A DNA stretch of 64,000 nt from Tubulanus polymorphus (GCF_964204645.1 NC_134028.1:15197653-15261652), one strand, 5' to 3'; positions 1,533-49,236 are shown, numbered from the stretch's first letter. The notes: generated by a model not told the origin, from the letters alone. Numbers and translations: made by a program.

Positions 1533-1993
1533 AGTAATAGGGATAATAGGCTTTCAGGCCAAAGGTCGAACGGTCGAGCTCGTTAAAAATGAAAAACATG
1601 AGAATAATAACAATTTCTACTTGAATTACTCGCGAAACTCATAAAAATGAAAAATAAATTCTCACACACTCGAATTTATTTTTCATTTTTATGAGTTTCA
1701 CTCCTAATTCAAGTAGAAATTGTAATTATTGTCATGTTTTTCATTTTTTACTCACCCGCCCGTTCAACCTTTAACCTGAAAGCCTATTATCCCTATTACT
1801 CTTAAAATATTCATATATATGAATAAAATATAAATGAATAACTTCTAAAATCAATTTTAATAAAAAATTTAGTATTAAAATGGAAGCAAATAAGTACTAC
1901 TGTCCAACATGTAATATCAATATAGATAAATCCCAAAAAGCAAGACACAATAAAACTAAAACACATTTAGAGAATAAATTGAAACTAGAATAT
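1533..1993. repeat. Left TIR of copy A; 1533-1800 is itself an imperfect 268-bp palindrome
   Basis: Reverse complement of ~18515-18975. AGTAATAGGGATAATAGGCTTTCAGG...CCTGAAAGCCTATTATCCCTATTACT with loop TCACACACTC near 1662-1671. Confidence 0.95.
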
Positions 1994-2131
1994 TTACAGT
2001 TATATTCAGAACAGTTAACAAAGGCAAAGAAATTTATTGATCAATGGAACAATGATCCAAATAATGAACAATACGTTGAGGAATTTGATATCAAGGATCC
2101 GATGTTTATACTAGAACATGATTCTATTTGA
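1880..2131 (+). CDS. 83-aa chimeric ORF: C2H2-type zinc finger (copy of pPolB N-terminus) plus copy of HNH-gene C-terminus
   Basis: YYCPTC..H..TKTH lies in the TIR; LQLY..WNNDPNNEQYVE also ends the ORF at 3461-3907. Intact in both copies. Confidence 0.6.
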   Translation: MEANKYYCPTCNINIDKSQKARHNKTKTHLENKLKLEYLQLYSEQLTKAKKFIDQWNNDPNNEQYVEEFDIKDPMFILEHDSI

Positions 2132-2787
2132 ACCTATATACATTCCATGTACAGAGCTATAGAATAAACCCACAGCTGTTACAGCCGTTACTATGACGCC
2201 GAGACATTATGACTCATAATATTACAAACGTGCAGAGAACACTCTAGAACCGGAACCAGATATCGTGGCAAGAAATGAACATACGCTGTAACATTGTGCT
2301 CAGGATATTCTATCTCTCGAAACGAAATTAGGAGTTTATAGTTTACAATTATAAATCTAAATGTAAGTACTGTTTGTTGTAGTTATTAGGGCTATTAAAT
2401 ATGAAACATTTAGATATATTTAAGAGTATTTAGTATATCTTTTAGATGGCTAGAGTTGCCGCTAATATCTTTTAGATTAATAAAACGCCATACGCATCAA
2501 AAAGTGATAGAGAAACTCAAGATACTCTTTCTGACTGAGGAATCAACAGCAATGGATATCAAACCAATAGAATCGCCAAAAGATCAACGAAGAAACTATA
2601 TAAGAATTTCAAAAACATTAAGACTCCAATGATTAAGTTTAACATTTGTTGATGTAGTTAAATATTTACCAGCAATTGAAAAAATGTTTGTAATTATAAA
2701 TTGTATTCATAGAAATGAAATGATGTATTGAAAGAAACGGCCGAACAACTTGTATAATGTATTGTGTAAATCTGATTGGCGAATTTT

Positions 2788-3125
2788 TATGTTCGGTCTT
2801 TTCTATTCAGAATGAATATATAATTAGGATTAGCGCATGCGCATTGATCAAAAGCGCGCACGAATGCGCGGTTTGCTCAGTGGTATGATTCAGATATTTC
2901 ATGTTCGGTCGTTTCTATTTACATAATGAATATATAATTATGATTAACGCATGCGCATTGAGCAAAACCGGGCCTGAATGCGCGGTTTGCTCAGTTGTAT
3001 GATTTAGATATTTCATGTCGGTTGTTTCTATTTACATAATGAATATATAATTAGGATTAACGCATGCGCATTAAGCAAAAGCGCGCATGAATGCGCGGTT
3101 TGCTCAGTGGTATGATTTAGATATC
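2788..3125. repeat. Three ~115-bp tandem repeats containing the CGCATGCGCA palindrome
   Basis: Unit AATGAATATATAATTAGGATTAACGCATGCGCATT..GAATGCGCGGTTTGCTCAGTGGTATGATTTAGATAT occurs three times. Confidence 0.9.
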
Positions 3126-3241
3126 AGGGAATCGAAACAACTTATCAAAAGCAGCGAGGAATGAAAAAGGATGACGTTGGTCGAAGAAATGGAAGAGGAT
3201 TCTAAAATATTAACCAATTTAGTAAAAAATACGTATTATAA

Positions 3242-3907
3242 ATTGAACCAGAACAACCACAAACTATCAATATTACAAATAACACTGGTGTTATAAATAT
3301 ATATTACAAGAAGTGTTCTAAATGTGAATTAGATAAATCATTAACAGAATTTAGTAAGCGTAAGATTAGCAAAGATGGTTTTCAATATTGCTGTAAAACT
3401 TGTTTTAAACTATATACCAAACAATACCGAGAAGATAACATAGAACATTATAATTATTATATGGCAGAATATATGAGAGAAAGATATCAAACAGATCTTA
3501 ATTTTAGATTGAAACAATGCTTAAGATCTAGATTAACACAATTATTCAACAAAGAAACGCATTTAGAAACACTATCTAATTTATTGGGTTGTTCAGATGA
3601 ATTCTTAAAATCATGGATTATATTTCAATTCGATGATAAAATGAATATAGATAATTATGGTGAATACTTTCATATTGATCACGTGTTACCAATATCTAAA
3701 TTTAACATGAATGATGAATACAATAAAAAACTTATTTGGGGTTGGAAGAATTTAAGACCTTTAGAAAAGAAAGAAAATCAAGTCAAATCTAATAAACTCG
3801 ATTTACAGTTATATTTGGATCAATTAGATAAAGTAAAGAAATTCATTGAATTATGGAACAATGATCCAAATAATGAACAATATGTTGAGTCTTTAATGAG
3901 TGGTTGA
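3242..3907 (+). pseudogene. HNH endonuclease with N-terminal Cys cluster (start ATG changed to ATT)
   Basis: HIDHVLP..WKNLRPL..N motif; in frame upstream CSKC..CCKTC; homologous to 52161-52832. Confidence 0.8.
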
Positions 3908-4154
3908 AGAATAATAGATTTTAAATAAAAAATATTAAAAATTACATATCTTCAACTAGCTAGTATTAGTTATTGTTTTTTTAATATTTTCTTTTCAAAA
4001 AAGAATACTTTATATCACAAATAAAAAATACTAAAAAAACAATAACTAATACTAAAATTCTTTACCTTTAACTAAGCTAGTATTAACCCAAAGAGATACT
4101 GGTATCATTTTATAATACTTATAATATTTTTCCTATTACATTTCTCTAATATAA

Positions 4155-4756
4155 ATGTCAAAGAAATCTAATAAGAATAGTATTGATATTGAAAAAACAT
4201 TAGATGATTGGGTATAAGTGATAATAAAGATACAGCTAATTGTGCTCAAGTTAATTGTAATATAGATTAGGAATACTATTTATATTGTAAGCATCATCTA
4301 GAACTATTGATTGCCGGTGGAAAAACTAAGGAGTTTTTAAATAGAATCATTACTTTTCAAGAACTAGACTCTATGAAACCAGATAAAGTAATAAAATATT
4401 TTAAGATTTACGAAGAAGCTAGATTAGCTAGAATAAATGATTCTATTTCAGATGGTATTGTCAAATGTTATTCTAAGTTATGTAACCAGTTAATACCAAT
4501 TGATGATGAAAATAAATTATATAGTGATTTGAAAAATGACTACTTAGTTATGACTGAATTACAAAAATGAGTTGGTTATGCTTCATTTCAATTAGGATCG
4601 GTTATGACATTAATTTCTACTGGCGTCATAACATTTTCGAACATCAAGCCTATGGAATATAAATCAGGTAAGAACGAAACAGATGACGCTGTACTACAAC
4701 CAAACTTCGAAACAGAAAATGAATCAGAACAAAAATTAACTAAAATAAATGAGTGA
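4155..4756 (+). pseudogene. Disrupted homologue of the 200-aa Polinton ORF
   Basis: Aligns with 51311-51913; frameshift near 4210 and stops near 4268 and 4568. Confidence 0.8.
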
Positions 4757-5108
4757 TGGAGTTAAGAAAATGGCTAGATCAGAGCAACAAATTAAATGGG
4801 CAAGAGAATTAGGTAAAAGATCTTCAGAATTAAAAAAAGCTAAGAAAAAGAAATTAACTGATATAAATGAATCACCCGATATTGATTCAAATAATAATCC
4901 ATCTGATTCTTCTAATGCTGGAAGTAATTATAAATTATATATTACAATTGGGTTAATCACAATTATTATATTCTCTGGCGTAATATATAAATCAAAATTC
5001 AAATCTGATGATAAAGATGATTCCAATGATAATAAACCTATCATACCAGAAAATAAGTCAAATCATAAAGCCATTGAAACTAAATCTAAATTATTATTAA
5101 TGGATTAA
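4749..5108 (+). CDS. 119-aa basic protein with a single TM helix, function unknown
   Basis: Lys-rich N-terminus and hydrophobic LYITIGLITIIIFSGVIY; conserved in copy B. Confidence 0.75.
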   Translation: MSDGVKKMARSEQQIKWARELGKRSSELKKAKKKKLTDINESPDIDSNNNPSDSSNAGSNYKLYITIGLITIIIFSGVIYKSKFKSDDKDDSNDNKPIIPENKSNHKAIETKSKLLLMD

Positions 5109-5114
5109 AATAAG

Positions 5115-6071
5115 ATGAAAAAAGAACAATATTTAAGAGAGTTATATTACAACCCAGAAAGTGAAGTATCATATTCTAACGTTACTGAATTATGGAATAA
5201 AATTAAATCTGATAATGGTGGTATAAAATATAGTGAATTAAAATCATGGTTACAAAATCAACCAACATATCAAATCCACAAGAAAATGGATAAAACTTAT
5301 TTAACAAGAAAAGTTATGGTTTCATATATCGATCAACAATGGCAAGCGGATTTAATTGACATGAAGAACTTAGAAGAATACAACAAAGGATATTTCTGGA
5401 TATTAAATGTTATAGATATATTCAAACATTTCAAAAAACTATTATCTGATAACGATGTAGATTATTTTTCAACACATTCAGATAAAAAAGCATCTATTAT
5501 AGAAAGATTTAATAAAACATTGAAAACTAGAATGTGGAAATATTTTACTGCTAATGAAACATATATTTATATCGATGTGTTAGATGATTTAGTGAAAGGT
5601 TATAATAATTCTAAACATAATTCTATAAATATGAAACCTATACAAGCTAGAAAAGAAGATAATTCAGAAATAGTTTAGAATAATTTATATGGAGCATTTG
5701 TTACACATGATTTTGGAGAACCTAAATTTAAAATAGGACAACACGTAAGAATATCTAAATATAGAAAAACCTTTTATAAAGGTTATACCCCTAATTTTAC
5801 AGAAGAAATATTCAAGATTAAAAAGATAATATTAACTAAACCATTTGTTTATAAATTAGAAGATCTAAAAGATGAAGAAATATTAGGTTATTTCTATGAA
5901 CAAGAATTATCACTTGTACCAAATCAAGATGAAATAGAATACAAAATAGAAAAAGTATTGAAAACAAAAACTCTTAAAGGAAAAAAGTATTCTTTGGTGA
6001 AATATAAAGGATATGATGATAAACTTAATGAATGGATTTTATCTAGTAAAATTAAAAGAATAAATGATTAA
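5115..6071 (+). pseudogene. rve (c-)integrase with chromodomain, inactivated
   Basis: WQADLID and ERFNKTLK motifs. In-frame 43-codon deletion near 5423 removes QFDEGKEF relative to copy B; TAG at 5676-5678. Confidence 0.93.
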
Positions 6072-6675
6072 AGATTTATTTATATTTGAACCGCATAATA
6101 TGATAGTTACTGGTGTAACCAATTGTGGTAAAACACATTTCATATTAGATTTGTTAGAAACTATTTATAAGAATCATTTTGATAATATAATATTATTTTG
6201 TCCTACTTATGAAATGAATAAAACATATAATAGAGATATAGTTAAGATAAAAAAGTTTATTATATTAGATCCTAAAACAGTAAAAGAAAATTTAGATAAT
6301 TGTATTAAAATAGCAATTGATAGTTATAAAGGATCAAATACATTATTCATTATAGATGATTGCGCAAATTTACATGATTCAAAAGTGAGAGAAAGTGAGT
6401 TATGTTATTTAGCTTTCTCTGGGAGACATTTTAGGATAACAACATGGGTTTTAAATCAAAAATATAATCCAATTGTTAAAGACTTTAGGGAGAATATAAG
6501 ATTTCTAGTTTTATTTTATAACAAAGATAAAAAATCTATGCAACAATCATTGGAAGAAAATCAAATTATACCTACTGAATTACTTGATGAATATATGAAT
6601 AAATTAAAGAATAATAAAGGTTCAAAATTATTACTGAGATTACAATTTCCCTATGAATATAAATTTATAAAATAA
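6064..6675 (+). CDS. A32/FtsK-HerA-type genome-packaging ATPase
   Basis: Walker A GVTNCGKT, Walker B FIIDDC, SGRH arginine-finger motif, NQ sensor. Confidence 0.92.
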   Translation: MIKDLFIFEPHNMIVTGVTNCGKTHFILDLLETIYKNHFDNIILFCPTYEMNKTYNRDIVKIKKFIILDPKTVKENLDNCIKIAIDSYKGSNTLFIIDDCANLHDSKVRESELCYLAFSGRHFRITTWVLNQKYNPIVKDFRENIRFLVLFYNKDKKSMQQSLEENQIIPTELLDEYMNKLKNNKGSKLLLRLQFPYEYKFIK

Positions 6676-6693
6676 ATATTTGTGTACCTATGT

Positions 6694-6770
6694 ATTAGAT
6701 ACCCAATTAGATACCCTAATACCTGATACCCCATTAGATACCCTAATACCTGATACCCTATTAGATACCT
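6694..6770. repeat. Short (TTA)GATACC repeat cluster between the convergent gene arms
   Basis: attagataccc / ctgataccc / taatacc units; mirrored at 49128-49222. Confidence 0.8.
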
Positions 6771-6831
6771 TAAATACTTAAAACCCCCTTTTTTATTTAC
6801 TATTATTTTATACAATTTTCAACCTTTATTA

Positions 6832-7746
6832 TTATTTGAGTGTTAGATAATCAATTTCTGAATCACTTTCACTATCAGACCCTAACAATTTATTCAAATT
6901 CTCTACCGTATCTTCTTCTAATTCTTTATTATTTTTATACTTATTCTTCGTCCTTTTTACCGAATCATCAATAGTTGTTTCATTGTTATGCTTATTCATC
7001 CAATCAAATTTATCATTATTATCAATGCGCTTTCCTGTATTTTCATTATCATCTTTATTAGTGTTTGCTCCTTATATTTCATTTACAGTGTTTGATCCTA
7101 ATATTTCATTAGCATCGGTTAAATCTAATTCATTTTTATTAGGTGTTGCTAATAAAAAATCTTCATATAATTCTTTACCATTTACTTTTTTATTTGAAAC
7201 AAATTTTGTAACATATCTAAATGGGTGTTCTATAAATTCTTTTAAACCAACACGTTCTATAACATTAGTAATATGTGAATTTGTATTCATATGTTTATTC
7301 CAATTTGATGGAGCGTTTGAAAATTCACCTTTACAATAATCACAATAATTTCTATTTTTACTAACATTTAATATTATTGCATTATTAGATGTAGAAGGTA
7401 TTACATTATTAGATGTAGTAGGTATTACACTATTAGATGTAGTAGGTATTACAATATTAGATGTAGTAGGTATTACATTATTAGATGTAGTAGGTATTAC
7501 ATTATTAGATGTAGTAGGTATTACATTATTAGATGTAGAAGGTATTACATTATTATCAATTACATTACTTAAATTATCAACAACACCACTTATATTATTA
7601 TCGATTTCTATTAGTTTAGTTTTATAAATTTTGAAAATAGGATCAAATATCAAAGCTATATTACAAGGTATTACATAATATAAACCATCATTATTTTCAT
7701 GTGTATCGATGTATGGAATATGTTTATATACTTTACCTCCTTCCAT
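6832..7746 (-). pseudogene. ~305-aa protein with NNVIPTTS repeats and a C2H2-like zinc finger; internal TAA at 7072
   Basis: Homologous to 48070-49014; YCDYC..H..TNSH motif. Confidence 0.78.
7381..7568. repeat. 24-bp coding tandem repeat (~7 units)
   Basis: ATTATTAGATGTAGTAGGTATTAC repeated. Confidence 0.95.
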
Positions 7747-7778
7747 TTATATAATAAATTTTTATTAAAGTTAAAATT

Positions 7779-9026
7779 TTAATGCATAACACTATCTAAT
7801 TGTGAATTTACAATATTTAATTGTGCGTCAGATATAATATAAATGTGCATTTTGAAATTTAGACTTCCTTTTTTCTTTGTCATGAATAATTGTATTCCAT
7901 CTTTAGTATTTTGTAGTTTTTTTCCAGAACCATGTAATGAATTATCCTCTGTTGTTCTAAAATCTAACCATAATGCATATCTATTGCCGGTATAATAATC
8001 AATTTGATTAATATTACAATTTTCAGATGATTTTCCTTTTTCATTCATAAAATGTTTTCTTATTTCTGGCCATTGATCAATCATTCTCATTCCTTGACAA
8101 AATATTTTATTTGCTATTCCTTCGATAGTTATTTCTACTTTTGTTATTTCAGGATTATAATACTTATCAACCTGTATTGCACCATTAGAATATGTTGCAA
8201 TGGTAAAAAATATTAATATACCTTTAATCGATCTTCTTGGGAAGTTAATATTCTCATTAATTATTTCATCATTTGCATTAATAGTTACAGTTTTAAATTT
8301 ATCAATATAATCATATAATAATGATAATCCTTGATTGTATTGAGTTTGAATTATACTTGAAATATTTTCATCAGTTACTGTATCATATTCTAAACATATA
8401 TTCGATAATTTATAACCCATATCTTTAAAAACGCTAGATAATACAATTTCATTTACAGGAGCAAATGTTATTTCGAATATAACGTCTTCTTGAATTGCGT
8501 ATTTATATAAAGGTGCATTATTATTTATCAATTCAAAGTCTAATGGAATTTTATATTTGCTTCCATAAATCTTTTTTATCAAATTATCTGCGGTACGAGT
8601 TACTATTGCGTCATTAGCTCCTGATCTTAATTTATTTTGGTTTTCTGATTAGATTCCTTGAAATATCATATTATTTCTATTTTCTTTAGTTAACCATAAA
8701 TCTTTATAATGCATAAATAAATTATAATCATCTAATGAGAAAACTGTTTCTGGACCAATCTTTATAGTTAACTTTTTAATCAAATATCTTCCAACATTAT
8801 CAACAACATAATTATTATCATGACCAATTACTTTTATATCGGCTGATAAATAAATACTATTTGGAACATAAAAAGTATTTTGTGTTAATCGAGGAATTCT
8901 AACATATAAAGTTTCATCGGGATTAATATTAGAAGGGTTATGAGTAATTATATGATGTGATCTTTCTGCTTTAATAGCATTAGATATTCTATGATTCTTA
9001 GAAGGATTTATATAACTCCCACTCAT
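7779..9026 (-). pseudogene. Putative double-jelly-roll major capsid protein (~415 aa), one in-frame TAA at 8649
   Basis: The 125-aa and 267-aa ORFs are in frame across one stop (Gln in copy B). Beta-strand-rich pattern, size, and a C-terminal LWLDFR..HGSG..N motif resemble Polinton/PLV MCPs. Confidence 0.72.
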
Positions 9027-9067
9027 TTATTTAACAAAAAAAATTAATTATTTATTTTTAATCATGG

Positions 9068-10532
9068 TTACTTGATATTTTTTGATATCATATTAACTAA
9101 CCCAAAAATAATAGCACTTACAACTGTAATTAAAAATAAAATAATATGTTCAGCAGCAAAGTTAATAATGTTTCCTGCAGATTTCAATATAAAACCAACA
9201 ATCATTGCAATAACTCCTGGCAATGCTGCAGCATATTTTTTAGAAAGTTCCCATAAATATTTTGCTAATTTCTTTAAACCATCCTTAACTTTATCTTGTA
9301 TAGAATTATTACCTGGGGGTTTATCTGGTTTATTGGGAGTAGGAGTAGATTTTAAAGCATTTGATATTGCTAAACCAATTGTTGTAAATAACATAGTTAC
9401 AGCTGTTCGAATTGAAAGAATTGTTATTCCTTCAAACTTAAATAATAATTTTATTCTATCTTTCAATGATATTCTAGAATCTGGTTTTATTAGATATCTT
9501 TTAAAAACATCTTTTAATCTATCAATATTATAATCATATGATTTTAATAATGATTTAATTTCTTCTTTTTGTAATTCTATGTTATATTCTAAATCATCTT
9601 TTTCTTTTTCTAAACGTAATTCTTTTTGCTTATATTCTATTTCGTCAATAACTTTATTATCTCTCTAATTTTAGTTTTTCCGATTCTTTTCTTGATTTAA
9701 ATAATTCATCTTCTAAAGTTCTAATTTTAAAATCTCTTATCTCTTTTTCATGCGCAATTTTATTAGTTGCATTTCTTATACTAAAAATTTCTCTTATTGC
9801 TTTATCAGAAAATGTATCTAAATCTTCTAATTCTTGTTTTGTTGCATCAAGTAATCCCTTCGGTAAAAGGAGTTCAGTCTGAACTCCTTTTGAATTAGGT
9901 TTACTAGTTTTGGAAGTTGTATTCTGTTCAGAACTTGTTTCTGGTTCTAAATTATTATCGATTGTTTCAAATAATTTTTCAATTCTTTGTTTAAAAACTC
10001 TTTCATTTTTAATAATTTCTTCTTGTGTTACATCTTCTATTTCATTACTATTTCTTATTATTTTAATTCTAGATAGTAATGAGTCAGACTTAAGCAAAGT
10101 TGATTCTGCTAATATTTTGTTTTGTTTTTTATAAGAGATATCAATATAATAATCATCTTTCAAACGATGATAATATTCACCATCTAAAAACTTTAATTCT
10201 CTTACTAAAAGTCTGGCGCCTCTATCATTTATATTATATCCAGATTCTTTAAATACATGTTGAAAATCATACATAAATTCAATATTTTCTAAATTTTGTC
10301 TTGATAAACCTTGATTTTCATTTTCAGGATTTATTCTCGATCTAGTTCTTCTATCAAATTCATCTGATGGGGTTTTAGGACCAGGAACAACTTCTGGTTC
10401 TAAATTAGTATTATATTCTGGCTCATTACCATCATTAAAACTTGTTTCACTAAAATCAGGTTGTGGTTCATCACTTATACCGGGGGTGTCACCAAAAGGA
10501 TCCAATGGAAAACCTTCTCCACCTTCTGCCAT
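9068..10532 (-). pseudogene. ~490-aa protein: acidic N-terminus, coiled coil, multi-hydrophobic C-terminus; one frameshift near 9660
   Basis: The 291-aa and 132-aa ORFs are joined by an open coiled-coil frame; copy B is broken at different positions. Confidence 0.7.
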
Positions 10533-10548
10533 TTACATAATAAAAAAA

Positions 10549-11934
10549 TTAAAATTTAAGATATAATATTCCTCCGATTACAATTCCTATACAAGTTATA
10601 GCTAATTTAGTATTTTCATGGGATTTATTATCATCATTTAGTTTAATTATATCATGTTGATTATTATCAGTTTTTATATTTTCTGATGTATTATAATCCG
10701 GTTTAGAATCATTATTTAATTTAATATTCTTAGTTTTAGTTTCAGTTGATTGAATATGTTTTTTATTTTTTTCACCTTCCATTGATTTTGGAGCAGTAAT
10801 AATCTTTTTATTTATATCATTCAATCCAAATGAATTATTTATTGTTGCGGTTTTAATTAGATTATTATAACCAATTATATTTCCCATCTTTAATACTAAA
10901 TCATTAGAAATAATTAATAGATTAGGGCCTATACAATAATTAAGCCTTACATGAGATTTATCTAAATAATTTTGATATCTTATAATGTTTTCTGGAATCG
11001 ATCTATTTTTATCATTATGTAAGGAATCATCAAATAATACTTTGAATTGTTTTTGTGTATCGAATGATGTATTCAAATTTCCAATTATCGGTGATCTTGT
11101 TTCAACTTGCGCGCCTAAAATACAAATTAAATAAGTTCTAATAGATTGATTAATTCTTTGTATACCTGATTTTGTAAAACCTTCATTATTTTCTAAAATG
11201 AAATAAACCCAACCATTATTGTTTTCTTGTTTTGAATTATCATAAAATGTCGGTAATTTATTGAAATTTAATGTTTCTAAATCCTTAGTTTCTATTTTAC
11301 CATAACCTAATTTATTACTATAGATATTATACAAACTATTAGATGGTATGGGAAGTGCACAATATTCTGCAATCTTTTTAGGGCAAGGAAGTGATCTTAT
11401 TGTTCCAATTTTTGTTCTAAAATCAGAATTATTTATATCTCTATTAAATTCATTACAAATTTTATAAAACTTTGATAAATTAATATTATTATCTAATTCT
11501 TTAAAATACCTAGATCCTGGTAAAGCGCACTCTAATTCATTTAATATTATTCTGATTTGAAAGTATGTATGAAATCTAAATAAACTTTGAATTAGTTTAT
11601 ATTTAGAATTATTCAAATGATCATTCCAACTAATTCCACAACCTGTTGTTGCACAATAAACAGCAAAATTTAATTGGTTCTGCCAATACTTCATATTAGA
11701 TTTTAATAACCATTGTTTTTCATCTTTCAATTTTTTAAAATTAATTAAATATACATGAAATATATTTTCCATCTTTGCATTAAAATTATTAGTTTCAGTA
11801 ACATAAATTTCTAAATTAGTTAATGAATCTAAAACTTCATTTCTATATGTAATATCTTTATTAAAATCTATTGCTGGAATATTATATTTAATTGATTTAT
11901 TATATTGGTAAGCTTTTGGAAAACTATCTACCAT
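10549..11934 (-). CDS. 461-aa protein of unknown function with C-terminal TM anchor
   Basis: Intact ORF, WQNQLNFAVYCATTGCG motif, terminal LAITCIGIVIGGILYL; homologue at 44126-45514. Confidence 0.85.
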   Translation of the reverse strand: MVDSFPKAYQYNKSIKYNIPAIDFNKDITYRNEVLDSLTNLEIYVTETNNFNAKMENIFHVYLINFKKLKDEKQWLLKSNMKYWQNQLNFAVYCATTGCGISWNDHLNNSKYKLIQSLFRFHTYFQIRIILNELECALPGSRYFKELDNNINLSKFYKICNEFNRDINNSDFRTKIGTIRSLPCPKKIAEYCALPIPSNSLYNIYSNKLGYGKIETKDLETLNFNKLPTFYDNSKQENNNGWVYFILENNEGFTKSGIQRINQSIRTYLICILGAQVETRSPIIGNLNTSFDTQKQFKVLFDDSLHNDKNRSIPENIIRYQNYLDKSHVRLNYCIGPNLLIISNDLVLKMGNIIGYNNLIKTATINNSFGLNDINKKIITAPKSMEGEKNKKHIQSTETKTKNIKLNNDSKPDYNTSENIKTDNNQHDIIKLNDDNKSHENTKLAITCIGIVIGGILYLKF

Positions 11935-11950
11935 TTATATAACTAAAAAA

Positions 11951-12385
11951 TTAATAATTTATTAATTCTTTTAATAACTTATCTTGTTCTTCAACTGTTA
12001 TATGACCATTTAAACTTATATGATCTAGTGTATTCTTCAATTTATTAATTTCTTTTATATTAGTTTCAATTTTTTCTTTATTAGTTTTTATATTTAATTT
12101 TGAACTTATACCAGTTAAAACACTTGAACTTAATCCTAATACGCCAATTGATAAAGCTAAAGGTGTTAATGGACTGAATATTGCTAGAAATGTTATTACA
12201 GAACTAATTGTAACCGAACCACTTATAATCAAATAATATATAATTTTAGATTTTAAATATTTTTTCTTTTTAACTTTTAAATCATTTTCAAATTCTAATA
12301 TTTGTTTTTCTAAATATGTTTTTAATTTAGTTTTATTTATATCATGAGGAATAATATCAATATTATCAACTTTATCTCTATTCAT
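11951..12385 (-). CDS. 144-aa two-TM protein with flanking coiled coils
   Basis: Two adjacent hydrophobic helices; homologue at 43690. Confidence 0.8.
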   Translation of the reverse strand: MNRDKVDNIDIIPHDINKTKLKTYLEKQILEFENDLKVKKKKYLKSKIIYYLIISGSVTISSVITFLAIFSPLTPLALSIGVLGLSSSVLTGISSKLNIKTNKEKIETNIKEINKLKNTLDHISLNGHITVEEQDKLLKELINY

Positions 12386-12401
12386 TTAGCAAAAAAAATT
12401 A

Positions 12402-12824
12402 CTAATTAGTAAACTTATAAGCAACAAATATAACAATAACTGTTCCATCTAAAATCCAAATTATTTCATATTTCTGTTGTTCTTTACTTGGGGTATAATA
12501 ATCTGAAAATTTAGGTTTGTATAGATGTAATTTTTCTTTATTGGTTACCGCGTTATATAAACTCATTGCATCATCAACAGATTGAAAATCTCTATGTGAA
12601 ATCTTCTGATCATATAATTCTTTATTGATGTAATCCATATAGTTTTGTCGTTTTTCTCTGTATTCTTCTGCTGCTTTATTATATTTCTCTAATGCTAAAT
12701 TATGTCTTCTTTGTTCTCCTAATGAACTATTTTTATCAATATGTTTAAATAAATATCCACCACCAGTAAATGCCAAAGCGTTAACAATTGCCGATCCTAT
12801 AATAGTTATAATTGCAGAAGCCAT
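12402..12824 (-). CDS. 140-aa protein with hydrophobic N-terminus, EQRRHN helix and C-terminal TM
   Basis: Intact and near-identical to 43248-43670. Confidence 0.85.
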   Translation of the reverse strand: MASAIITIIGSAIVNALAFTGGGYLFKHIDKNSSLGEQRRHNLALEKYNKAAEEYREKRQNYMDYINKELYDQKISHRDFQSVDDAMSLYNAVTNKEKLHLYKPKFSDYYTPSKEQQKYEIIWILDGTVIVIFVAYKFTN

Positions 12825-12848
12825 TTATTTAGCAAAAAAATTATGTAT

Positions 12849-13069
12849 TTATATGGGAGGAATATATTTTTGTTTTTCCAAATAATCAATAGTTAAATTA
12901 GATAAAGTAACTGCTAATGTTAATTTTAAAATATCATTTATATCAAATCTATCAACATTAACACTTCCCATTTTGAATACTTTTTTAATACCATTGAATA
13001 ACCAACAGTTCCAACTGATAGTAAGGCGCCATTATATAATCCAGTTATTATCCACTTATTATCACTCAT
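12849..13069 (-). pseudogene. ~73-aa small hydrophobic protein with a 1-nt frameshift near the start
   Basis: TAAATG start; ..GALLSVGTVGYSMVLKK..DYLEKQKYIPPI equals the C-terminal half of 42858-43223. Confidence 0.6.
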
Positions 13070-13428
13070 TTATTTATCAAAAAAATTACTATCATCAAAA
13101 TATTTAGTTAACTTATTTATGATTAATTCAACATTTATTTCATTACTAGTTTCATTTGTATATATTTCAATTATTATTTTTTTAATATCATCGATGATAA
13201 AATCTTCATCTAATTCATAAAATCTTAAAGATTCTCTAATTAAATTAGTAATCTTTTCTACATTAAAATGTTCTTTATCTATTGTTGTTTCATACTCAAA
13301 TGTTGTTTCATTAGAAAATGCAATATTTTTAATATGTGTAATTACATCATTAACGTTAAATTTCATTTCTTTCTCACGTTTAAAATCAAATCCAAAACAT
13401 ATGCTCGGCCCAACAGTTCATTATTCAT
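13070..13428 (-). pseudogene. ~119-aa acidic protein of unknown function, frameshifted near the start
   Basis: TAAATG start at 13428; N-terminal half matches 42858-43048. Confidence 0.6.
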
Positions 13429-13444
13429 TTATATAATGAAAAAA

Positions 13445-14203
13445 TTACTCTCTACATCTTATAACTAATTCATATATTACAGGAAAGTTATTCAAATCAA
13501 TTAAATAACCATTATGATTTCTTATTTCTAATTTAAAATTATTGAAATGTGGAATACAAGGTTTGAAATCACATTCTGTTAAATTATAATTTATTTGCGT
13601 TCCAAATTCTTTAACATTTTTTAATGGTAATATATTTAATATACTAGAATTACAAATTGTATCTTTAGTTGCTTCAAATGTTTTTGTAGGATCAATTAAA
13701 TTGCAATAAATATAAAAGGGCGTAAAAGGTATTATATTTGAAATGCCTTCTACGTTTACTGTAACAACATCTGGTGCAATTCCTAGCAATTTAGCTAATG
13801 GTTTTTTTACTATAAATGCATGTTGACTTTCATCAAATACCTTTATTTTAATTTTATTTGAGCTATCACTTTTTATAAATCTTATTAAAAATTTATCATC
13901 TTTTCTAATTTTCAACCGTGCTCTACGATTGATTTCTTGAGCTAATGTTTCTAAATTATATAATCTTGGTTTTAAAATTAGATGAAACCATTTATTAACA
14001 TTTCTAATATGAATTAAAAAAGTATTATGTTCAATAGTTTTATTCGATATATTGTAAAAAGAATTACATAAACTTATATTAACTAATTTTAAATCTACGC
14101 AATTTTTATATTCTCTATCTAATTGTACTAGTAAATTATGAGATTTATAATTAGTAAGTTTTCTTGAATCAACAAATATTCTGTATTCTTTTAATTCTAC
14201 CAT
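13445..14203 (-). CDS. Putative minor capsid protein (penton, single jelly roll)
   Basis: N-terminal IFVDSR, SFYNI, YIYCNLI and C-terminal EIRNHNGYLIDLNN..YEL pattern, typical of Polinton/PLV pentons. Confidence 0.8.
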   Translation of the reverse strand: MVELKEYRIFVDSRKLTNYKSHNLLVQLDREYKNCVDLKLVNISLCNSFYNISNKTIEHNTFLIHIRNVNKWFHLILKPRLYNLETLAQEINRRARLKIRKDDKFLIRFIKSDSSNKIKIKVFDESQHAFIVKKPLAKLLGIAPDVVTVNVEGISNIIPFTPFYIYCNLIDPTKTFEATKDTICNSSILNILPLKNVKEFGTQINYNLTECDFKPCIPHFNNFKLEIRNHNGYLIDLNNFPVIYELVIRCRE

Positions 14204-14220
14204 TTATTTTACATATTTTC

Positions 14221-14562
14221 TTATTTGAAATCTATTTCATGGTGCCCTTTTTCATTCTTACCCTTATATATGAAATAGAAATCTCCAGAACATAATTCTT
14301 CTATATCTTCACTTGATAATCTATGAAATCTATCAGGTAAATATATTCTGAATTTATGTGTATTTCCTTTTAATCAATCATATTCTAAGTGTATAACTAA
14401 TTTATCTCCATAGTTATTAGTAACTGTAACAATATTTGTAATTAGATATTTCTCATGGATTGTTAATTCTGTTAACTTTTTGAATTTATAATCTACAGAT
14501 TTTACATTTGAAGTATATTTTATTCTATTTAAGAATTCACTGTGTGTTTGTTTACTCTCCAT
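14221..14562 (-). pseudogene. 113-aa small protein (possible OB-fold), internal TGA at 14374
   Basis: Homologue of the intact ORF at 41727-42068. Confidence 0.7.
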
Positions 14563-14591
14563 TTATAATACATATTTTTATTAAAATTTGA

Positions 14592-17500
14592 TTAACACGT
14601 TAGAATTCTTTTCATTATCTCGTTCTCTTTTGTTTCTTCTCTTTTAAATTTTAAGTATTCATCTAAATTACAACCATAAGGAACTGTATGAATTCCATCA
14701 TCCAGAATATATCTTTTATCATCAAATGGGTTTAGACTTATCTTTTCAATTTCTTCAATAAACATTTCATGATCTTCAGATCTTAAACATCTCATCTTAT
14801 GTTTTCTAACTTCTTCATTGAATATACAATTGATGTAATCTTTGAAATGAATATTCTTTTCTACTACACTTTTGGTTATTCCTTTTAACTTTTTAGCTTC
14901 ATGTTCTTTAGTTTTATATGAATACATTTTAGATCTAATACCTATGAATTCAATCATTACTTCACCGCCTAATTCATCTTTGAATTTACAAGGAACTTTT
15001 TTATTATCATTGCTAAACAATTCATGATTTTTAGGATAATTACTGAAATCAAAATGATGTTTTAATGTTTTTAAATCATCAGTTATGTTATCAGTTTTTA
15101 TCTTTAATATGTAAGAATCTGTTCAAAATATAATATTTCTATGTGTTTTTCTCCAAAAAGTGGTTGTAATACATTATAATAGAATTCATACATTAGTAAT
15201 TTTGATAATTCTAAAACTGATGCGCCAACATAGATTGGTTTATTGAATTTCATTGATGTTCTTCTCATTTTAACTGCAGCTAAATTTTCATCAAATATTC
15301 TGTTACCAATGAACTTAGATATGATTGTAAATGTCTAATTCTTTTGCCATTACTTACTAACTCAATATCATATCTATTTCTAATATTTTCACAAGTCTTA
15401 CCATAGAATGCATTATTCATTAACTTGAAGAAATCTTTCTCGAAATCAGTTTTAGCTTCAGTTCTCTGTTTGGTGTTAAAATCTATATATTTTTCTAACC
15501 ACTTAGATTGACTAAATGAAACATATCTATGTACTTTTTTTAGAATCATTCCTTGTTTTAGATAAAACTTTAACATTCTATAATGTACTACATAATTATA
15601 TTTATCTTCTTGAGTTACCATTAACTTTTCTGTATGAATATGATTTTCGGGTTTAATTCTTTTTTGATAATTTGATAATTCTTCATGAGTTACAGTTTTA
15701 TGTTCTGGACAGTAAGCTAGATTTCTAGATTTAAATTTAATATGTTCAGGATATTCTAAATCTACAACAAAGAAGTAACCAGTATCTGAATCATCTGCAA
15801 TATCTAGAATTCTTTTCTTCCACTCAAATTTATCATTATTTTCATTCTGTAAAACTTCAGTTAATTCAAATACTCCATAAGGTTGTGGTTCCATCATTGC
15901 CCAACCATACAAATTATTTGCATCTATATATAATAACTTATATCCAGGGTTATCATTTACATTGAAATATCTATCACCTAATACACCTGAAACTCCTCCT
16001 CTTATAGATTTTTCAAATAATAGTAATTGATCTATATTTGTTAACAAATCCATTTTTATATCTGTAAATTTTAATCCACAATCCCATGTTAAACCTGGTG
16101 ATGAATAACAATGACATGGATCAATGTTAAAATATTTTAGGTTTACATCTCTAAACCTTTCGAATATATCGGTTAATAATAATACATCTGATTTTAGATA
16201 TGAATCTACTAATTGTCCATGATTTTTCATTCCAAAATGATTCCAAATATTCAATGTCCTATTATATACTTCATCTTTAACATATTCCTTTTTTAATTCA
16301 TCATAGAATTATTCTTTCAATAATTCAGTTATGTTAAAATCATTATGATTCTATAGAAAGAATATGGAATTGCTCCTTTATATCTCATTAATTTAAAATC
16401 ATCATTATTTGGGTAATATTCTTTTAATATCTTTAATTCATCATCAACTAATGATTTTGATAAGTTATTAAATGAACTATTTAAAAATCTATATGAATCT
16501 ATAAATCTTAGGCAACCAAATTGGAATGATATATAATTCTCAGATGTTTTAGCTAACATTCTAAATTTATAAGTTGGTATTTTATCTTATGATCTATTTG
16601 AATTTAATCTTTCTATTTCATTATTAATTTCTTCTATTTTATGGCATAACTGTTTGATGAATAAATGTGCATCATATCCTGATAGATTATGAAATATAAC
16701 TGGTACAAAGTTAATTTTCTTAGCTTGTAAGTTACAATTCTCATGTGCAGCGCCTCTAAACTTTCCATTCAAATGATCATGGTCTCTTACTTTTTTATCT
16801 TTATAATTAAATATCTTTTCACAATAATAACATTTATCTGCAAACGCAAATTCTTCTTTATCTTCTTCTGTCATTATAATTTCTATATTTGTATTCAATA
16901 ATTTACTAAATCTTATTTCATATTCAATTAATCAGTCACAAAAATGATTGATAACATTTTCATTTCTATAATGATAATATTCACTTTCAATTAGTTCTGG
17001 ATAATCAGATTTAATATATAACCCGAAAGCTGCAGCTGATTGATGAATCTTTTTAATAGTATTTGTTTTTGGTGGTTCTTCAGAATAATCATTTTCATTA
17101 GAATTTAATTTCTTTCTTCCATAATATATTTCTTTTCTATCTTGATCAGTTAATTCTTTATTTAATGATTCAAAATCTCCATATATTACAAATGGTACTT
17201 TATTTTTGTAATCATATTTTTTGAATTCTAATATTTTATCCTTTTCATTTGGTAAAACTAATTTACAATAATCATGATTTTCACATAATTGTTTATGATT
17301 TAATAATGTACTTTCATTACTGAATCTATGTAAACATTTTCTACATAGATATATTTTATTATGGTGATCACTTTCTGTTCTAAAGAATAAATCTATTTGT
17401 TTAATCCACATATAATGATTCTCATAATATAATATATCTATAACATCGTTTGAATCATAATCTTTTGATAGATATAAAGGTTCTAATGTATAATGTTTTA

Positions 17501-18628
17501 TGTTGTTACCTTTTGTATTTGGTAATTTGATTAAATCAAATACATTTATTCTTAAATTATTATCTCTTTCTATTTTTGGGATGTCTTTAATTATAACAGG
17601 ATACTTATCTATCTTATAATTATTTTCAAATTGTTTATAATTCGTTAATCTATAAGTATGTTTATTATAATCTTCAACTGGGTGTAAGCAACTTATAATT
17701 GCCCATAGAAAACATTTATCATCAAAATTTTGTACATTTATTACAGCATTAGTTTTAAATGGTAGTTTAATATAACTCGATGCTTCAATATCTGGTTTTT
17801 TATAATATGATACATTATTTTCATCAATTGGTATCGATTTAGTTTACTTATTATATTTTGTGTTATAAACATGTAAAGTCATAAATATTATTTCATCAAA
17901 TATTAAACCAGATCCTTCAAAATATTTCTCTTCTATTTTAGTTTTCACTTCATTATAACATTTATCTAATTTATCATCTATATGTTGTTTAGATATAATA
18001 TGTTGTGAATGAGAATTTATATTATATATTGGTTTATCTTCAGATTTTATAAACTTTACTTTAACTGATATACTATTTTAGGATATTTAACATCAGTTAT
18101 CATTTTTATTATTTCTTTCATATTTTCTAAATGTTTTTTATTTTCTTCTAATGTTTTTCCTTTATGAAATTTAAACTCAATAGCTGCTGGACCAATATCA
18201 CTTTTAAATGCTTCGGTTATCTCTATATCTTTTTTATTATCTAATGAATTAATATAATTTCTTACATCTTCCATGTATGGTCTTTTATTGTTTAATTTAT
18301 TTTTTATGCTTTTAATTGTCTTCTGTTTCTTATCATTATCTTTATCAAAATAATCTTCACCTAAAATATCATTATTCTTATTTCTATGACTTTTAGATTT
18401 TAAATGTTCTTTATAATAAATTTTATCACTGAATGATTGATTACATGTATCACATTTGTATGTTTCTTTTTCATTCTTTAATTCATCTAATTTAGTTTCT
18501 AATATATCATCTTCATATTCTTATTTCAATTTATTCTCTAAATGTGTTTTAGTTTTATTGTGTCTTGCTTTTTGGGATTTATCTATATTGATATTACATG
18601 TTGGACAGTAGTACTTATATGCTTCCAT
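14592..18628 (-). pseudogene. Protein-primed family B DNA polymerase (pPolB), fragmented
   Basis: Exonuclease motifs YGDFES, FHNLSGYD and YLKSDV; polymerase motifs YIDANNLYG and KLMNNAFYGK; broken DTDS; KFKDE. N-terminal zinc fingers, KCFLWA..HY (vOTU-like) and RDHDH..HxxC insert. Confidence 0.95.
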
Positions 18629-18975
18629 TTTAATACTAAATTTTTTATTAAAATTGATTTTAGAAGTTATTCATTTATATTTTATTCATGTATATGAATA
18701 TTTTAAGAGTAATAGGGATAATAGGCTTTCAGGTTAAAGGTTGAACGGGCGGGTGAGTAAAAAATGAAAAACATGAGAATAATTACAATTTCTACTTGAA
18801 TTAGGAGTGAAACTCATAAAAATGAAAAATAAATTCGAGTGTGTGAGAATTTATTTTTCATTTTTATGAGTTTCGCGAGTAATTCAAGTAGAAATTGTTA
18901 TTATTCTCATGTTTTTCATTTTTTACGAGCTCGACCGTTCGACCTTTGGCCTGAAAGCCTATTATCCCTATCAAT
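18515..18975. repeat. Right TIR of copy A with hairpin 18708-18975
   Basis: Inverted copy of 1533-1993. Confidence 0.95.
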
Positions 18976-37305: not shown

Positions 37306-37651
37306 AAATTCATTTTGTTTATTTCTAAGTTTGCCCGGCAAAATATGACATAGATCCCTCTCCGATAAATGTCCCTGGGTCAAAATCTTCCTGGTAAAAA
37401 GTCCACATCAGATTTCACAATTTTAATAATAATCGCACACTCGAATTTATTTTTCATTTTATATGAGTTTCACTCCTAATTCAAATAGAAATTATTATTA
37501 TTTTCATATTTTTCATTTTTTACTCACTAGCCCTTTCAACCTTTGATATGAAACAACATATTCCTTATTACTCTTAAAATATTCATATATATGAATAAAA
37601 TATAAATGAATAACTTCTAAAATCAATTTTAATAAAAAATTTAGTATGAAA

Positions 37652-40600
37652 ATGGAAGCAAATGAGTACTACTGCCCAACATGTAATATCAATATAGATA
37701 AATCCCAAAAAGCAAGACACAATAAAACTAAAACACATTTAGAGAATAAATTGAAGCTAAAATATAAAGATGATATATTAGAAACTAAATTAGATGAATT
37801 AAAGAATGAAAAAGAAACATACAAATGTGATACATGTAATCAATCATTCAGTGATAAAAGATATTATAATGAACATTTAAAATCTAAAAGTCATATTAGA
37901 AATATGAATAATATTATTTTAGGTGAAGATTATTTTGATAAAGATAATGATAAAAAACAGAAGACAAAATTAAAAGCATAAAAAATAAATTAAACAATAA
38001 AAGACCATACATGGAAGATGTAAGAAAATATATTAATTCATTAGATAATAAAAAAGATATAGAGATAACCGAAGCATTTAGAGGTGATATTGGCCCAGCA
38101 GCTATCGAGTTTAAATTTCATAAAGGAAAAACATTAGAAGAAAATAAAAAACATTTAGAAAATATGAAAGAAATAATAAAAATAATAACTGATGTTGAAT
38201 ACCCTAAAATAAGTATATCTTCTAAAGTTAAATTCATAAAATCTGAAGATAAACCAATATATAATATAAATTCTCATTCACAACATATTATTTCAAAACA
38301 ACATATAGATGATAAATTAGATAAATGTTATAATGAAGTAAAAACTAAAATAGAAGAGAAATATTTTGAAGGATCTGGTTTAATATTTGATGAAATAATA
38401 TTTATGACTTTACATGTTTATAACACAAAATATAATAAGTTAACTAAATCAAAACCAATTGATGAAAATAATTTATCATATTATAAAGAACCAGATATTG
38501 AAGCATCGAGTTATATTAAACTACCATTTAAAACTAATGCTGTTATAAATGTACAAAATTTTGATGATAAATGTTTTCTATGGGCTATAATAAGTTGCTT
38601 ACATCCAACAGAAGATATTACACATAGTTTTAGATTAACTCATTATAAACCATTTGAAAATAATTATAAGATAGATAAGTATCCTGTTAGAATTAAAAAT
38701 ATCCCAAAAATAGAAAGAGATAATAATATAAAGATAAATTTATTCGATTTAATCAAATTACCAAAAACAAAAGGTAATAATATTAAACATTATACATTAG
38801 AACCTTTATATCTATCAAAAGATTATGATTCAAACGATGTTATAGATATACTATATTATGAAAATCATTATATGTGGATTAAACAAATTGATTTATTTTT
38901 CAAATCAGAAAATGATTATACTCGTAAAATATATCTATGTAGAAAATGTTTACATAAATTCAGTAATGAGAGTGCATTATTAAATCATAAACAATTCTGT
39001 GAAAATCATGATTATTGTAAATTAGTTTTACCAAATGAAAAAGATAAAATATTAGAATTCAAAAAATATGATTACAAAAATAAAGTTCCATTTGTTATAT
39101 ATGGAGATTTTGAATCATTAAATAAAGATCTAACTGATCAAGATAGAAAAGAAATATATTATAAAAGAAAGAAATTAAATTCTAATGAAAATGATTTTTC
39201 AGAAGAACCACCAAAAACAAATACTATTAAAAAGATTCATCAATCAGCTGCTGCTTTCGGGTTATATATTAAATCTGATTATCCAGAACTAATTGAAAGT
39301 GAATATTATCATTATAGAAATGAAAATGTTATCAATCATTTTTGTGACTTATTAATTGAATATGAAATAAGATTTAGTAAATTATTGAATACAAATATAG
39401 AAATCATAATGACAGAAGAAGATAAAGAAGCATTTGAGTTTGCAGATAAATATTATTATTGTGAAAAGATATTTAATTATAAAGATAAAAAAGTAAGAGA
39501 CCATGATCATTTGAATGGAAAGTTTAGAGGCGCTGCACATGAGAATTGTAACTTACAAGCTAAGAAAATTAACTTTGTACCAGTTATATTTCATAATCTA
39601 TCAGGATATGATGCACATTTATTCATCAAACAGTTATGCCATAAAATAGAAGAAATTAATAATGAAATAGAAAGATTAAATTCAAATAGATCATAAGATA
39701 AAATACCAACTTATAAATTTAGAATGTTAGCTAAAACATCTGAGAATTATATATCATTCCAATTTGGTTGCCTAAGATTTATAGATTCATATAGATTTTT
39801 AAATAGTTCATTTAATAACTTATCAAAATCATTAGTTGATGATGAATTAAAGATATTAAAAGAATATTACCCAAATAATGATGATTTTAAATTAATGAGA
39901 TATAAAGAAGCAATTCCATATTCTTTCTATAGAATCATAATGATTTTAACATAACTGAATTATTGACAGAATAATTCTATGATGAATTAAAAAAGGAATA
40001 TGTTAAAGATGAAGTATATAATAGGACATTGAATATTTGGAATCATTTTGGAATGAAAAATCATGGACAATTAGTAGATTCATATCTAAAATCAGATGTA
40101 TTATTATTAACCGATATATTCGAAAGGTTTAGAGATGTAAACCTAAAATATTTTAACATTGATCCATGTCATTGTTATTCATCACCAGGTCTTAACATGG
40201 GATTGTGGATTAAAATTTACAGATATAAAAATGGATTTGTTAACAAATATAGATCAATTACTATTATTTGAAAAATCTATAAGAGGAGGAGTTTCAGGTG
40301 TATTAGCTGATAGATATTTCAATGTAAATGATAACCCCGGATATAAGTTATTATATATATAGATGCAAATAATCTATATGGTTGGGCAATGATGGAACCA
40401 CAACCTTATGGAGTATTTGAATTAACTGAAGTTTTACAGAATGAAAATAATGATAAATTTTATTGGAAGAAAAGAATTCTAGATATTGCAGATGATTCAG
40501 ATACTGGTTACTTCTTTGTTGTAGATTTAGAATATCCTGAACATATTAAATTTAAATCTAGAAATCTAGCATACTGTCCCGAACATAAAACCGTTACTCA

Positions 40601-41697
40601 TGAAGAATTATCAAATTATCAAAAAAGAATTAAACCCGAAAATCTTATTCATACAGAAAAGTTAATGGTAACTCAAGAAGATAAATATAATTATGTAGTA
40701 ATTAAAGAATGTTGAAGTTTTATTTGAATCAAGGAATGATTCTAAAAAAAGTACATAGATATATTTCATTCAGTCAATCTAAGTGGTTAGAAAAATATAT
40801 AGATTTTAACACCAAACAGAGAACTGAAGCTAAAACTGATTTCGAGAAAGATTTCTTCAAGCTAATGAATAATGCATTCTATGGTAAGACTTGTGAAAAT
40901 ATTAGAAATAGAAATGATATTGAGTTAGTTAGTAATGGTAAAAGAATTAGAAATTTACAAACATATTCAAGTTCATTGGTAACAGAATATTTGATGAAAA
41001 TTTAGCTGCAGTTAAAATGAGAAGAACATCAATGAAATTCAATAAACCAATCTATGTTGGCGCATCAGTTTTAGAATTATCAAAATTACTAATGTATGAA
41101 TTCTATTATAATGTATTACAACCACTTTTTGGAGAAAAACACATAGAAATATTATATTTTGAACAGATTCTTACATATTAAAGATAAAAACTGATAACAT
41201 AACTGATGATTTAAAAACATTAAAACATCATTTTGATTTTAGTAATTATCCTAAAGATCATGAATTGCTTAGCAATGATAATAAAAAAGTTCCCGGTAAA
41301 TTCAAAGATGAATTAGGTGGTGAAGAAATGATTGAATTCATTGGTATTAGATCTAAAATGTATTCATATAAAACTAAAGAACATGAAGCTAAAAAGTTAA
41401 CCAAAACTAATAACCAAAAATGTAGTAGAAAAGAATATTCATTTCAAAGATTACATCAATTGTATATTCAATGAAGAAGTTAGAAAACATAAGATGAGAT
41501 GTTTAAGATCTGAAGATCGTGAAATGTTTATTGAAGAAATAGAGAAGATAAGTCTAAACCCATTTGATGATAAAAGATATATTTTAGATGATGGAATTCA
41601 TACAGTTGCTTATGGATGTAATTTAGATGAATACTTAAAATTTAAAAGAGAAGAAACAAAAGAGAACGAGATAATGAAAAGAATTCTAACGTGTTAA
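37652..41697 (+). pseudogene. pPolB, fragmented (~1340 codons when reconstructed)
   Basis: Same motifs as copy A. The ZnF ORF (to 37981) is separated from 38011 by a 2-nt insertion absent in copy A. Confidence 0.95.
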
Positions 41698-41726
41698 TCA
41701 AATTTTGATAAAAATATGTTATTAAA

Positions 41727-42068: not shown

Positions 42069-42082
42069 AATATGTAAAATAA

Positions 42083-42841: not shown

Positions 42842-42857
42842 TTTTTTCACTATATAA

Positions 42858-43223: not shown

Positions 43224-43247
43224 ATGCATAATTTTTTGGCTAAATAA

Positions 43248-43670: not shown

Positions 43671-43689
43671 TAATTTTTTTTCTAAATAA

Positions 43690-45514: not shown

Positions 45515-45530
45515 TTTTTGTATTATGTAA

Positions 45531-46974: not shown

Positions 46975-46994
46975 TTAATTTTTTTGTTAAATAA

Positions 46995-48037: not shown

Positions 48038-48069
48038 AATTTTAACTTTAATAAAAAATCTTATATTAA

Positions 48070-49014: not shown

Positions 49015-49127
49015 GGGTCTGATAGTGAAAGTGATTCAGAAATTAATTATCTAACACTCAAAAAGTAATAAAGGTTGAAAATTGTATAAAATAATAGTAA
49101 ATAAAAAAGGGGGTTTTAAGTATTTAA

Positions 49128-49222: not shown

Positions 49223-49236
49223 AGATATGAAAATAG

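Follow-up and report, generated by a model that had tools for sequence, protein, structure and literature searches.

The window analysed here is a 64,000-nucleotide stretch of the Tubulanus polymorphus genome (GCF_964204645.1, NC_134028.1:15197653-15261652; positions are counted from its first letter), and our subject is a Polinton that occurs in it twice, as copies A and B, together with the sequence TAAATG at which most of its genes begin. Judged from its sequence, the element is an integrating Polinton. Copy A generated a 6-bp target-site duplication, and 170 reads of run X6 cover the corresponding empty-site junction, connecting position 1526 with 18976 with 6 bases in common. The features of the element, with open reading frames (ORFs) that lack an assigned name called by their length, are as follows:

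1533..18975, Polinton copy A, 17,443 bp, flanked by TGGGTA target-site duplications at 1527-1532 and 18976-18981 (from sequence and reads)
1533..1993, plus strand, left terminal inverted repeat (TIR), 461 bp, 98.7% identical to the right TIR
2785..3124, a 113-bp repeat, present three times, in an interior part of copy A with few genes
3250..3907, plus strand, HNH-like endonuclease gene, start not intact in copy A; the copy B start (52832) is TAAATG with an A-tract
4155..4756, plus strand, orf200, broken in copy A; TAAATG
4749..5108, plus strand, orf122; TAAATG, A-tract
5115..6071, plus strand, rve integrase with chromodomain, broken in copy A; TAAGATG
6064..6675, plus strand, A32-like packaging ATPase (PF04665, E 5e-13); TAAATG, A-tract
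6832..7746, minus strand, orf314, with a 24-bp tandem repeat, broken in copy A; TAAATG, A-tract
7779..9026, minus strand, major capsid protein (MCP), double jelly-roll by structural model, one internal stop in copy A; TTTTTTTTGTTAAA-TAAATG
9068..10532, minus strand, orf485, split in copies A and B, a single gene in the relative L003; TAAATG, T-tract
10549..11934, minus strand, orf461, conserved, no function assigned; TAAATG, T-tract
11951..12385, minus strand, orf144, hydrophobic; TAAATG, T-tract
12402..12824, minus strand, orf140, conserved, hydrophobic ends; TAAATG, T-tract
12849..13069, minus strand, orf73, small and hydrophobic, broken in copy A; TAAATG, T-tract
13070..13428, minus strand, orf121, broken in copy A; TAAATG, T-tract
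13445..14203, minus strand, orf252, candidate penton (unconfirmed); TAAATG, A-tract
14374..14562, minus strand, orf113, broken in copy A, 113 aa in copy B; TAAATG, A-tract
14592..18628, minus strand, protein-primed DNA polymerase B (pPolB), zinc fingers at the N terminus, endonuclease VII-like insert, in 5 segments in copy A; A-tract...TAAAATG, T at -9
18515..18975, minus strand, right TIR, containing the real pPolB start
37433..54917 (approximately), Polinton copy B, inverted, ~92% identical to copy A, left TIR truncated; TAAATG starts as in copy A

The identity of the capsid protein was established through its intact homologue P0002 (78% identical), whose structural model (pLDDT 76) matches the PBCV-1 capsid with E 1e-14 and TM 0.64, thus placing the MCP of the element, at the level of the model, in the double jelly-roll fold. 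Against Pfam the capsid matched no Polinton family, the only signal being a weak one to Capsid_N (E 0.0015); nor did P0002 give a Pfam match of the Sputnik/mavirus type, whereas the control locus L037 matches the Sputnik MCP families. The integrase carries PF00665 (E 3e-9) and Chromo domains in Pfam and is intact in copy B (367 aa, 49840-50943), the pPolB fragments of the copies tile the intact relative P0040, with PF03175 found in many homologues, and the HNH label derives from the relative L001 (PF01844, E 0.0055). The pPolB homologues P0050 and P0081 also carry PF14890 (with PF14528 or PF05204), which we take to be intein/homing-endonuclease families. No PDB structure match was obtained for orf252, whose candidacy as a penton is drawn from size alone, or for orf200, while orf461 gave no usable fold (pLDDT 31) and no match in PDB or the Atlas. 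A deletion fuses orf73 to orf121 in copy B; in L003 it is a gene of its own. No protease family was matched by Pfam in the window ORFs or in the scanned relatives, a divergent one being possible among the unassigned ORFs. Likewise, the element encodes no recognisable RNA polymerase, and neither the window nor the scanned relatives yielded a poxvirus polymerase subunit; a Pox_Rap94 match in L014 (E 0.019, 13.6 bits against a cutoff of 25) was discarded as noise. No Rfam family was matched in the window.

Decay has affected both copies: the pPolB gene is split into 5 segments in copy A and into more in copy B, while the capsid gene is interrupted by one stop in the former and by frame breaks in the latter. 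Being broken, the two copies cannot as they stand provide the defence that the preliminary description of this DNA had considered. Read depth over the element was 90-860, from 1,934 Mb of reads, which implies that the host chromosomes hold many copies, in a number that depends on host genome size. In X8, possibly an RNA run, there were 3 matches, all short and partial, which count neither for nor against expression.

The preliminary description had proposed that nearly all genes start in a poxvirus late-promoter-like context, and had listed 24 TAAATG starts (13 in copy A, 11 in copy B). Every listed position is indeed the A of an ATG that follows TAA, and the unlisted ATPase start of copy B (49847) has TAAATG as well. 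TAA precedes 13/16 annotated starts of copy A vs 41/724 other ATGs (~6%; Fisher P 1.8e-13), and the enrichment expected over a composition-matched background was recovered when intergenic base make-up was used (14/17, binomial P 2e-12). The corresponding figures are 39/498 for the first ATG of short spurious ORFs and 17/618 and 10/341 for the ATGs of the two host flanks; neither of the two host-type ORFs in the window has TAAATG, the host control consisting of these two ORFs together with every ATG of the flanks. When each gene is counted once, at its corrected start (for HNH, that of copy B), TAAATG is found at 14/16 genes.

The two genes said to lack the exact motif were integrase and pPolB. 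For integrase this proved correct, since TAAGATG is present in both copies, although its start is TAAATG in the relatives L001 and L003. The pPolB start that had been cited (18274/38011), instead, is a Met inside the protein: in the intact relative P0040 the zinc-finger segment adjoining the TIR comes first, hence the real start lies at 18628 on the minus strand (copy A) and at 37652 on the plus strand (copy B). The former is preceded by an A-tract and reads TAAAATG, while TGAAA precedes the ATG in the latter. Position 11054 of L003 was rejected as a pPolB start.

Upstream of the initiator, T is found at -9 before TAAAT in 15/16 genes, and in copy A at 13/13 start TAAATG vs 17/41 non-start TAAATG (P 2e-4); the overall start profile of the element can be written A(-15)...T(-9)-N5-AWA-TAAATG. 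The T5-T8 run reported just upstream occurs at about half of the starts, five starts having an A-tract instead; at least 5 T are found within -13..-8 at 6/13 copy A starts, and the T7 run of orf144 is shifted closer. The T-tract genes are capsid, orf485, orf461, orf144, orf140, orf73 and orf121, and the A-tract genes pPolB, orf113, orf252, orf314, ATPase, orf122 and HNH. The T-tract often directly follows the stop codon of the upstream gene. Intergenic gaps are small, as had been described (~15-40 nt), but range from -8 to 41 nt, with four of exactly 16 nt. As a side observation, T runs are depleted on the coding strands of the element ORFs (12,378 bases, copies A and B pooled), with T5 found 13 times vs 31.9 expected and TTTTTNT 3 times vs 10.2 expected (P 0.004), a possible avoidance of T-run terminators.

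Alignment of the capsid yielded 24 metagenomic loci, and hand-picked starts were analysed in 12 close and 4 distant ones. L002, which duplicates L001, and the broken fragments L018-L024 were left out, as was any ORF that was truncated, overlapped another in antisense or was an internal piece of a split gene; as the loci are related, P values overstate independence. No capsid or integrase relatives were found in IMG/VR and no match in the phage collection, and a GTDB match (L025) was dismissed as a 20-residue chance match. In the close loci, whose capsids are 54-84% identical to P0002, whose GC content is 20-44% and whose gene order is shuffled, TAAATG is present at 44/49 starts vs 76/1818 other ATGs, loci of 36-44% GC included. 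When element and relatives are taken together (57 TAAATG starts and 117 non-start TAAATG), T at -9 is found in 95% vs 38%, A at -15 in 77% vs 33%, and a T- or A-tract at 42/57 vs 12/117. The class of tract follows the gene, being T for MCP in 10/11 cases and A for ATPase in 5/5 and for orf314 in 3/3. In a quick MCP tree the motif-bearing loci fall into three separate subclades (support 100, 100 and 92). A deoxynucleoside kinase, absent from the window element, is encoded in some relatives (L003:10340-10981, L006:2895-3377, and P0052, where it is fused to the pPolB end), and would fit extranuclear replication.

Four head-to-head gene pairs, with distances of 19, 28, 28 and 30 nt between the two ATGs, have TAAATG in both directions, and in L012 one shared tract serves as T-tract for the capsid gene and as A-tract for the ATPase. 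A fifth, wider pair (64 nt, L005) has TAAATG on one side only.

The distant capsid relatives (L013, L014, L016 and L017; 35-49% identity) behave differently: TAAATG is found at 0/15 starts, and TATA within 12 nt of the ATG at 12/14 non-duplicate starts vs 51/501 other ATGs. The late initiator of African swine fever virus (ASFV) and pacmanvirus, which this TATA resembles, is TATATA (PMC5294985, PMC11788076), and the distant lineage may, from its start sequences, use an asfarvirus-like helper. In the negative controls TAAATG was scarce, at 0/15, 0/4 and 3/19 starts of other small viral contigs, 0/2 in L039 and 0/10 in L037, a Sputnik-type virophage. The latter is itself a hybrid, with a pPolB 42% identical to that of the window beside its Sputnik-type capsid gene. 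An unrelated Polinton (L038:684-8745; pPolB 40% and integrase 44% identical) has TAAATG at 6/6 complete ORFs and at a truncated seventh, as well as a head-to-head pair 34 nt apart, so that the signature is not limited to one clade.

In vaccinia, a late promoter has TAAAT(G) and a T some 10 nt before it, an intermediate promoter TAAA and an A-rich core (PMC11980589); the cores lie ~6 and ~11 nt upstream, the initiator of the intermediate gene G8R is TAAAAT (PMC12722222), and the viral polymerase reads TAAA directly (PMC12917281). The element shares with these promoters the TAAAT(G)/TAAAAT initiator placed on the start codon, the constant spacing of a core rich in T or A, and the short two-way arrangement; the TAAAATG of copy A pPolB is of the G8R type. 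As a positive control, 16 of 37 chordopoxvirus loci were chosen by hand for diversity. TAAATG makes up 165/355 of the starts sampled there (46%, vs 88% of the element genes), T is most frequent at -10 (73%), downstream of an A-rich stretch, and of 56 head-to-head pairs, taken from 18 loci with two genomes represented twice, 28 have a distance of 23-30 nt. Spacing, conservation in three subclades, two-way promoters and the chordopoxvirus comparison make it well supported, at the level of sequence, that the start signal is a poxvirus-type post-replicative promoter. The late-promoter reading first given to it thus holds as to the post-replicative type and has to be widened, because intermediate-like forms occur beside the late ones.

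We consider it likely, with a probability of roughly 0.7, that a co-infecting poxvirus-type virus, and not host RNA polymerase II (Pol II), provides the enzyme that transcribes the element; it is from the start signals that we infer helper-dependent transcription. The co-infecting virus would supply its post-replicative polymerase, which would start at TAAAT and add poly(A) leaders, and expression of the A-tract genes (pPolB, ATPase, orf113, orf314) would precede that of the T-tract genes (capsid and hydrophobic proteins). The element would replicate with its own pPolB, package its DNA with the ATPase and integrate into chromosomes with the integrase, as mavirus does with its helper Cafeteria roenbergensis virus (CroV). 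Sharing of helper promoters has precedents in mavirus and Sputnik (PMC6723459), and Gezel-14T uses the early promoter of its helper (bioRxiv 2022.07.28.501842).

Several points weigh against transcription by a poxvirus-type helper. The helper was not found, all 37 RNA polymerase matches in IMG/VR being 66-100% identical to the chordopoxvirus query. High copy number combined with strict helper dependence would require repeated infection of germ-line or stem cells. The tract class is mixed among orthologues of orf113, orf121, orf252 and orf122. The T-tract may double as a terminator of the upstream transcript, even if it cannot be solely that, since it is also present in head-to-head pairs. The T-minus-A profiles of the element clade and of the chordopoxviruses correlate (r 0.63 at shift 0, 0.62 at shift -1), but over 16 smooth positions and with orthologous, non-independent genes, and the comparison set consisted of chordopoxviruses. 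Moreover, the T peak lies at -9 and not at -10, and the bases at -1 and -3 are A in 84% and 72% of the starts in the element clade vs 36% and 42% in chordopoxviruses. From the spacer, shorter by 1 nt, and the additional A at these two positions, a helper outside the chordopoxviruses is predicted. Finally, yeast virus-like elements (VLEs) use a similar TAAAN initiator with a polymerase of their own, so that the initiator alone is not diagnostic of poxviruses.

This last point bears on a first alternative, according to which the promoter is real and its polymerase comes from another pox-related cytoplasmic source, be it a resident linear plasmid like the yeast VLEs or a virus resembling egoviruses or asfarviruses. 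VLE polymerases initiate at TAAAN and give their transcripts poly(A) leaders (PMC6211774), the egoviruses are the closest poxvirus relatives, have basal clades from marine sediments and have exchanged genes with polintons (bioRxiv 2024.03.23.586382), and the profile of the element departs from that of chordopoxviruses. Nevertheless, we regard such a source as unlikely: the two promoter classes and the two-way promoters match poxviruses, the ASFV late initiator TATATA appears in the sister lineage instead, and promoters are not described in the available text of the egovirus preprint. A yeast VLE promoter was rejected, its upstream element ATNTGA occurring at 0/17 starts in the 20-40-nt window.

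A second alternative is nuclear autonomy, in which host Pol II, perhaps guided by an uncharacterised protein of the element, would read an AT-rich initiator whose likeness to poxviruses is a convergence under compaction. The many chromosomal copies, the nuclear access implied by a chromodomain integrase and the several element genes of unassigned function are in its favour, and vaccinia late promoters are reportedly bound by host TBP. However, head-to-head ATGs 19-30 nt apart leave almost no room for a 5' untranslated region, a TATAAA overlapping the ATG would place the Pol II start within the ORF, and the two host-type ORFs of the window are devoid of the motif. The swap of the sister lineage to another initiator of large-virus type is also more easily explained by the tracking of a helper, and on balance we hold autonomous nuclear transcription to be improbable.

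By far the least probable explanation is that TAAATG reflects translation, as stop-start coupling, Kozak-like context or trans-splice acceptor, or simply follows from an AT content of 76%, for although TAA precedes ATG in copy A more often than any other trinucleotide does (54/740) and the genes are tightly packed, the spacing at -9 and -15 is fixed, the motif persists at 36-44% GC and other AT-rich viral contigs do not share it (0/15, 0/4, 3/19 and 0/10). Stop-start coupling was rejected, TAA being the upstream stop codon at 1/14 junctions only and the motif occurring also in head-to-head pairs, as were the trans-splice acceptor, no AG preceding the ATG, and a TATA box reading of the signal.

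With Polintons/Mavericks (Polintoviricetes; PMC4028283, PMC8502044) the element shares a length of 15-20 kb, TIRs, a 6-bp duplication, pPolB, rve-chromodomain integrase, A32-like ATPase and a double jelly-roll capsid, and it differs from them in the lack of a detected adenain protease, of an OTU match on pPolB and of a Polinton capsid family in Pfam. A cysteine protease occurs in 74% of Polintons. At the Pfam level no adenain was found, and the intact pPolB relatives gave zinc-finger and endonuclease VII domains and no OTU; the element is therefore not an adintovirus in the sense of PMC8502044, in whose available text poxvirus-type promoters are not described.

The closest parallel in lifestyle, mavirus with CroV (PMC6723459), has in common with the element an rve integrase, pPolB, chromosomal integration and a helper-type promoter before nearly all genes, and this last, virophage-like trait is present before most genes of the element. 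The capsid lineage, instead, is another, the promoter is of TAAAT type vs the TCTA of CroV, and the helper dependence of the element is presumed from its promoters. The yeast VLEs pGKL1/2 (PMC6211774) are likewise linear, protein-primed DNA elements with a TAAAN initiator, but they encode an RNA polymerase and use ATNTGA, neither of which was found in the element, which has a capsid and an integrase.

Four Polinton-like viruses (PLVs), AHEV_PLV1, AHEV_PLV2, CBEV_PLV1 and Ca_PLV1, were co-sequenced with entomopoxviruses from occlusion bodies (PMC11296320). Like the element they are proposed to be hyperparasites of poxviruses, but they are ~12 kb long, with a cysteine protease, an L2-mu-like protein and no rve integrase, and their promoters are not analysed in the available text, whereas the evidence in the element is the promoter. 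A link to these PLVs, which the preliminary description had mentioned, is not supported by gene content, as they have a protease and lack an rve integrase. No report of poxvirus-type promoters in a Polinton was found in the literature searched, most subscription papers lying outside its coverage; what would be new here is the sharing of helper promoters in the style of mavirus with poxvirus-type signals in an integrating Polinton.

The ends of the element show further peculiarities. The left TIR carries the first ~38 codons of pPolB and opens with an imperfect palindrome of 268 bp, in which AAAATGAAAA occurs twice per strand. Such a 268-bp palindrome, with the AAAATGAAAA repeats, closes each TIR (1533-1800, 18708-18975 and 54649-54917); it is predicted to fold as DNA into a hairpin of -100.6 kcal/mol, 64 bp at its centre are deleted in other copies, and in sequence it is reminiscent of the hairpin ends of poxviruses. 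As promoters the AAAATGAAAA motifs, although similar to the poxvirus early core, were not counted, since they are more than 230 nt from the ATG and occur on both strands. An 83-aa hybrid ORF at 1880-2131 and 54318-54569 joins the duplicated pPolB start to a piece resembling the 3' end of the HNH gene and has a TAAAATG start.

Elsewhere in the window, between the two Polinton copies, two long ORFs at 31404-35645 (890 aa, with N-terminal zinc fingers, and 412 aa) resemble a CACTA-type DNA transposon and had no Pfam transposase match. A 230-bp palindrome at 37085-37314 (100-nt arms, 94%), adjoining the truncated left end of copy B, is probably a miniature transposon, and a degenerate 22-nt tandem array with extreme C/G strand skew lies at 20187-21060.

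It is an open question how Polintons are transcribed in animal-type genomes and which of the three, autonomous virus, transposon or satellite, they are; the promoter signature makes it directly testable. If a poxvirus-type helper is indeed involved, the mavirus model, in which an integrated satellite is woken by a large virus, would be extended to poxvirus-type helpers, the promoter evidence missing from the work on entomopoxvirus-associated PLVs would be added, and a sequence-only route to the helpers of other Polintons would be available. More tentatively, and somewhat short of what we would call probable, the whole Polinton clade could consist of endogenous poxvirus virophages with a two-step intermediate/late programme, whose sisters switched to an asfarvirus-like TATA, so that the motifs would record the virus family parasitised. 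Such a clade, if real, would predict undiscovered poxvirus-like viruses in hosts and habitats from which none is known.

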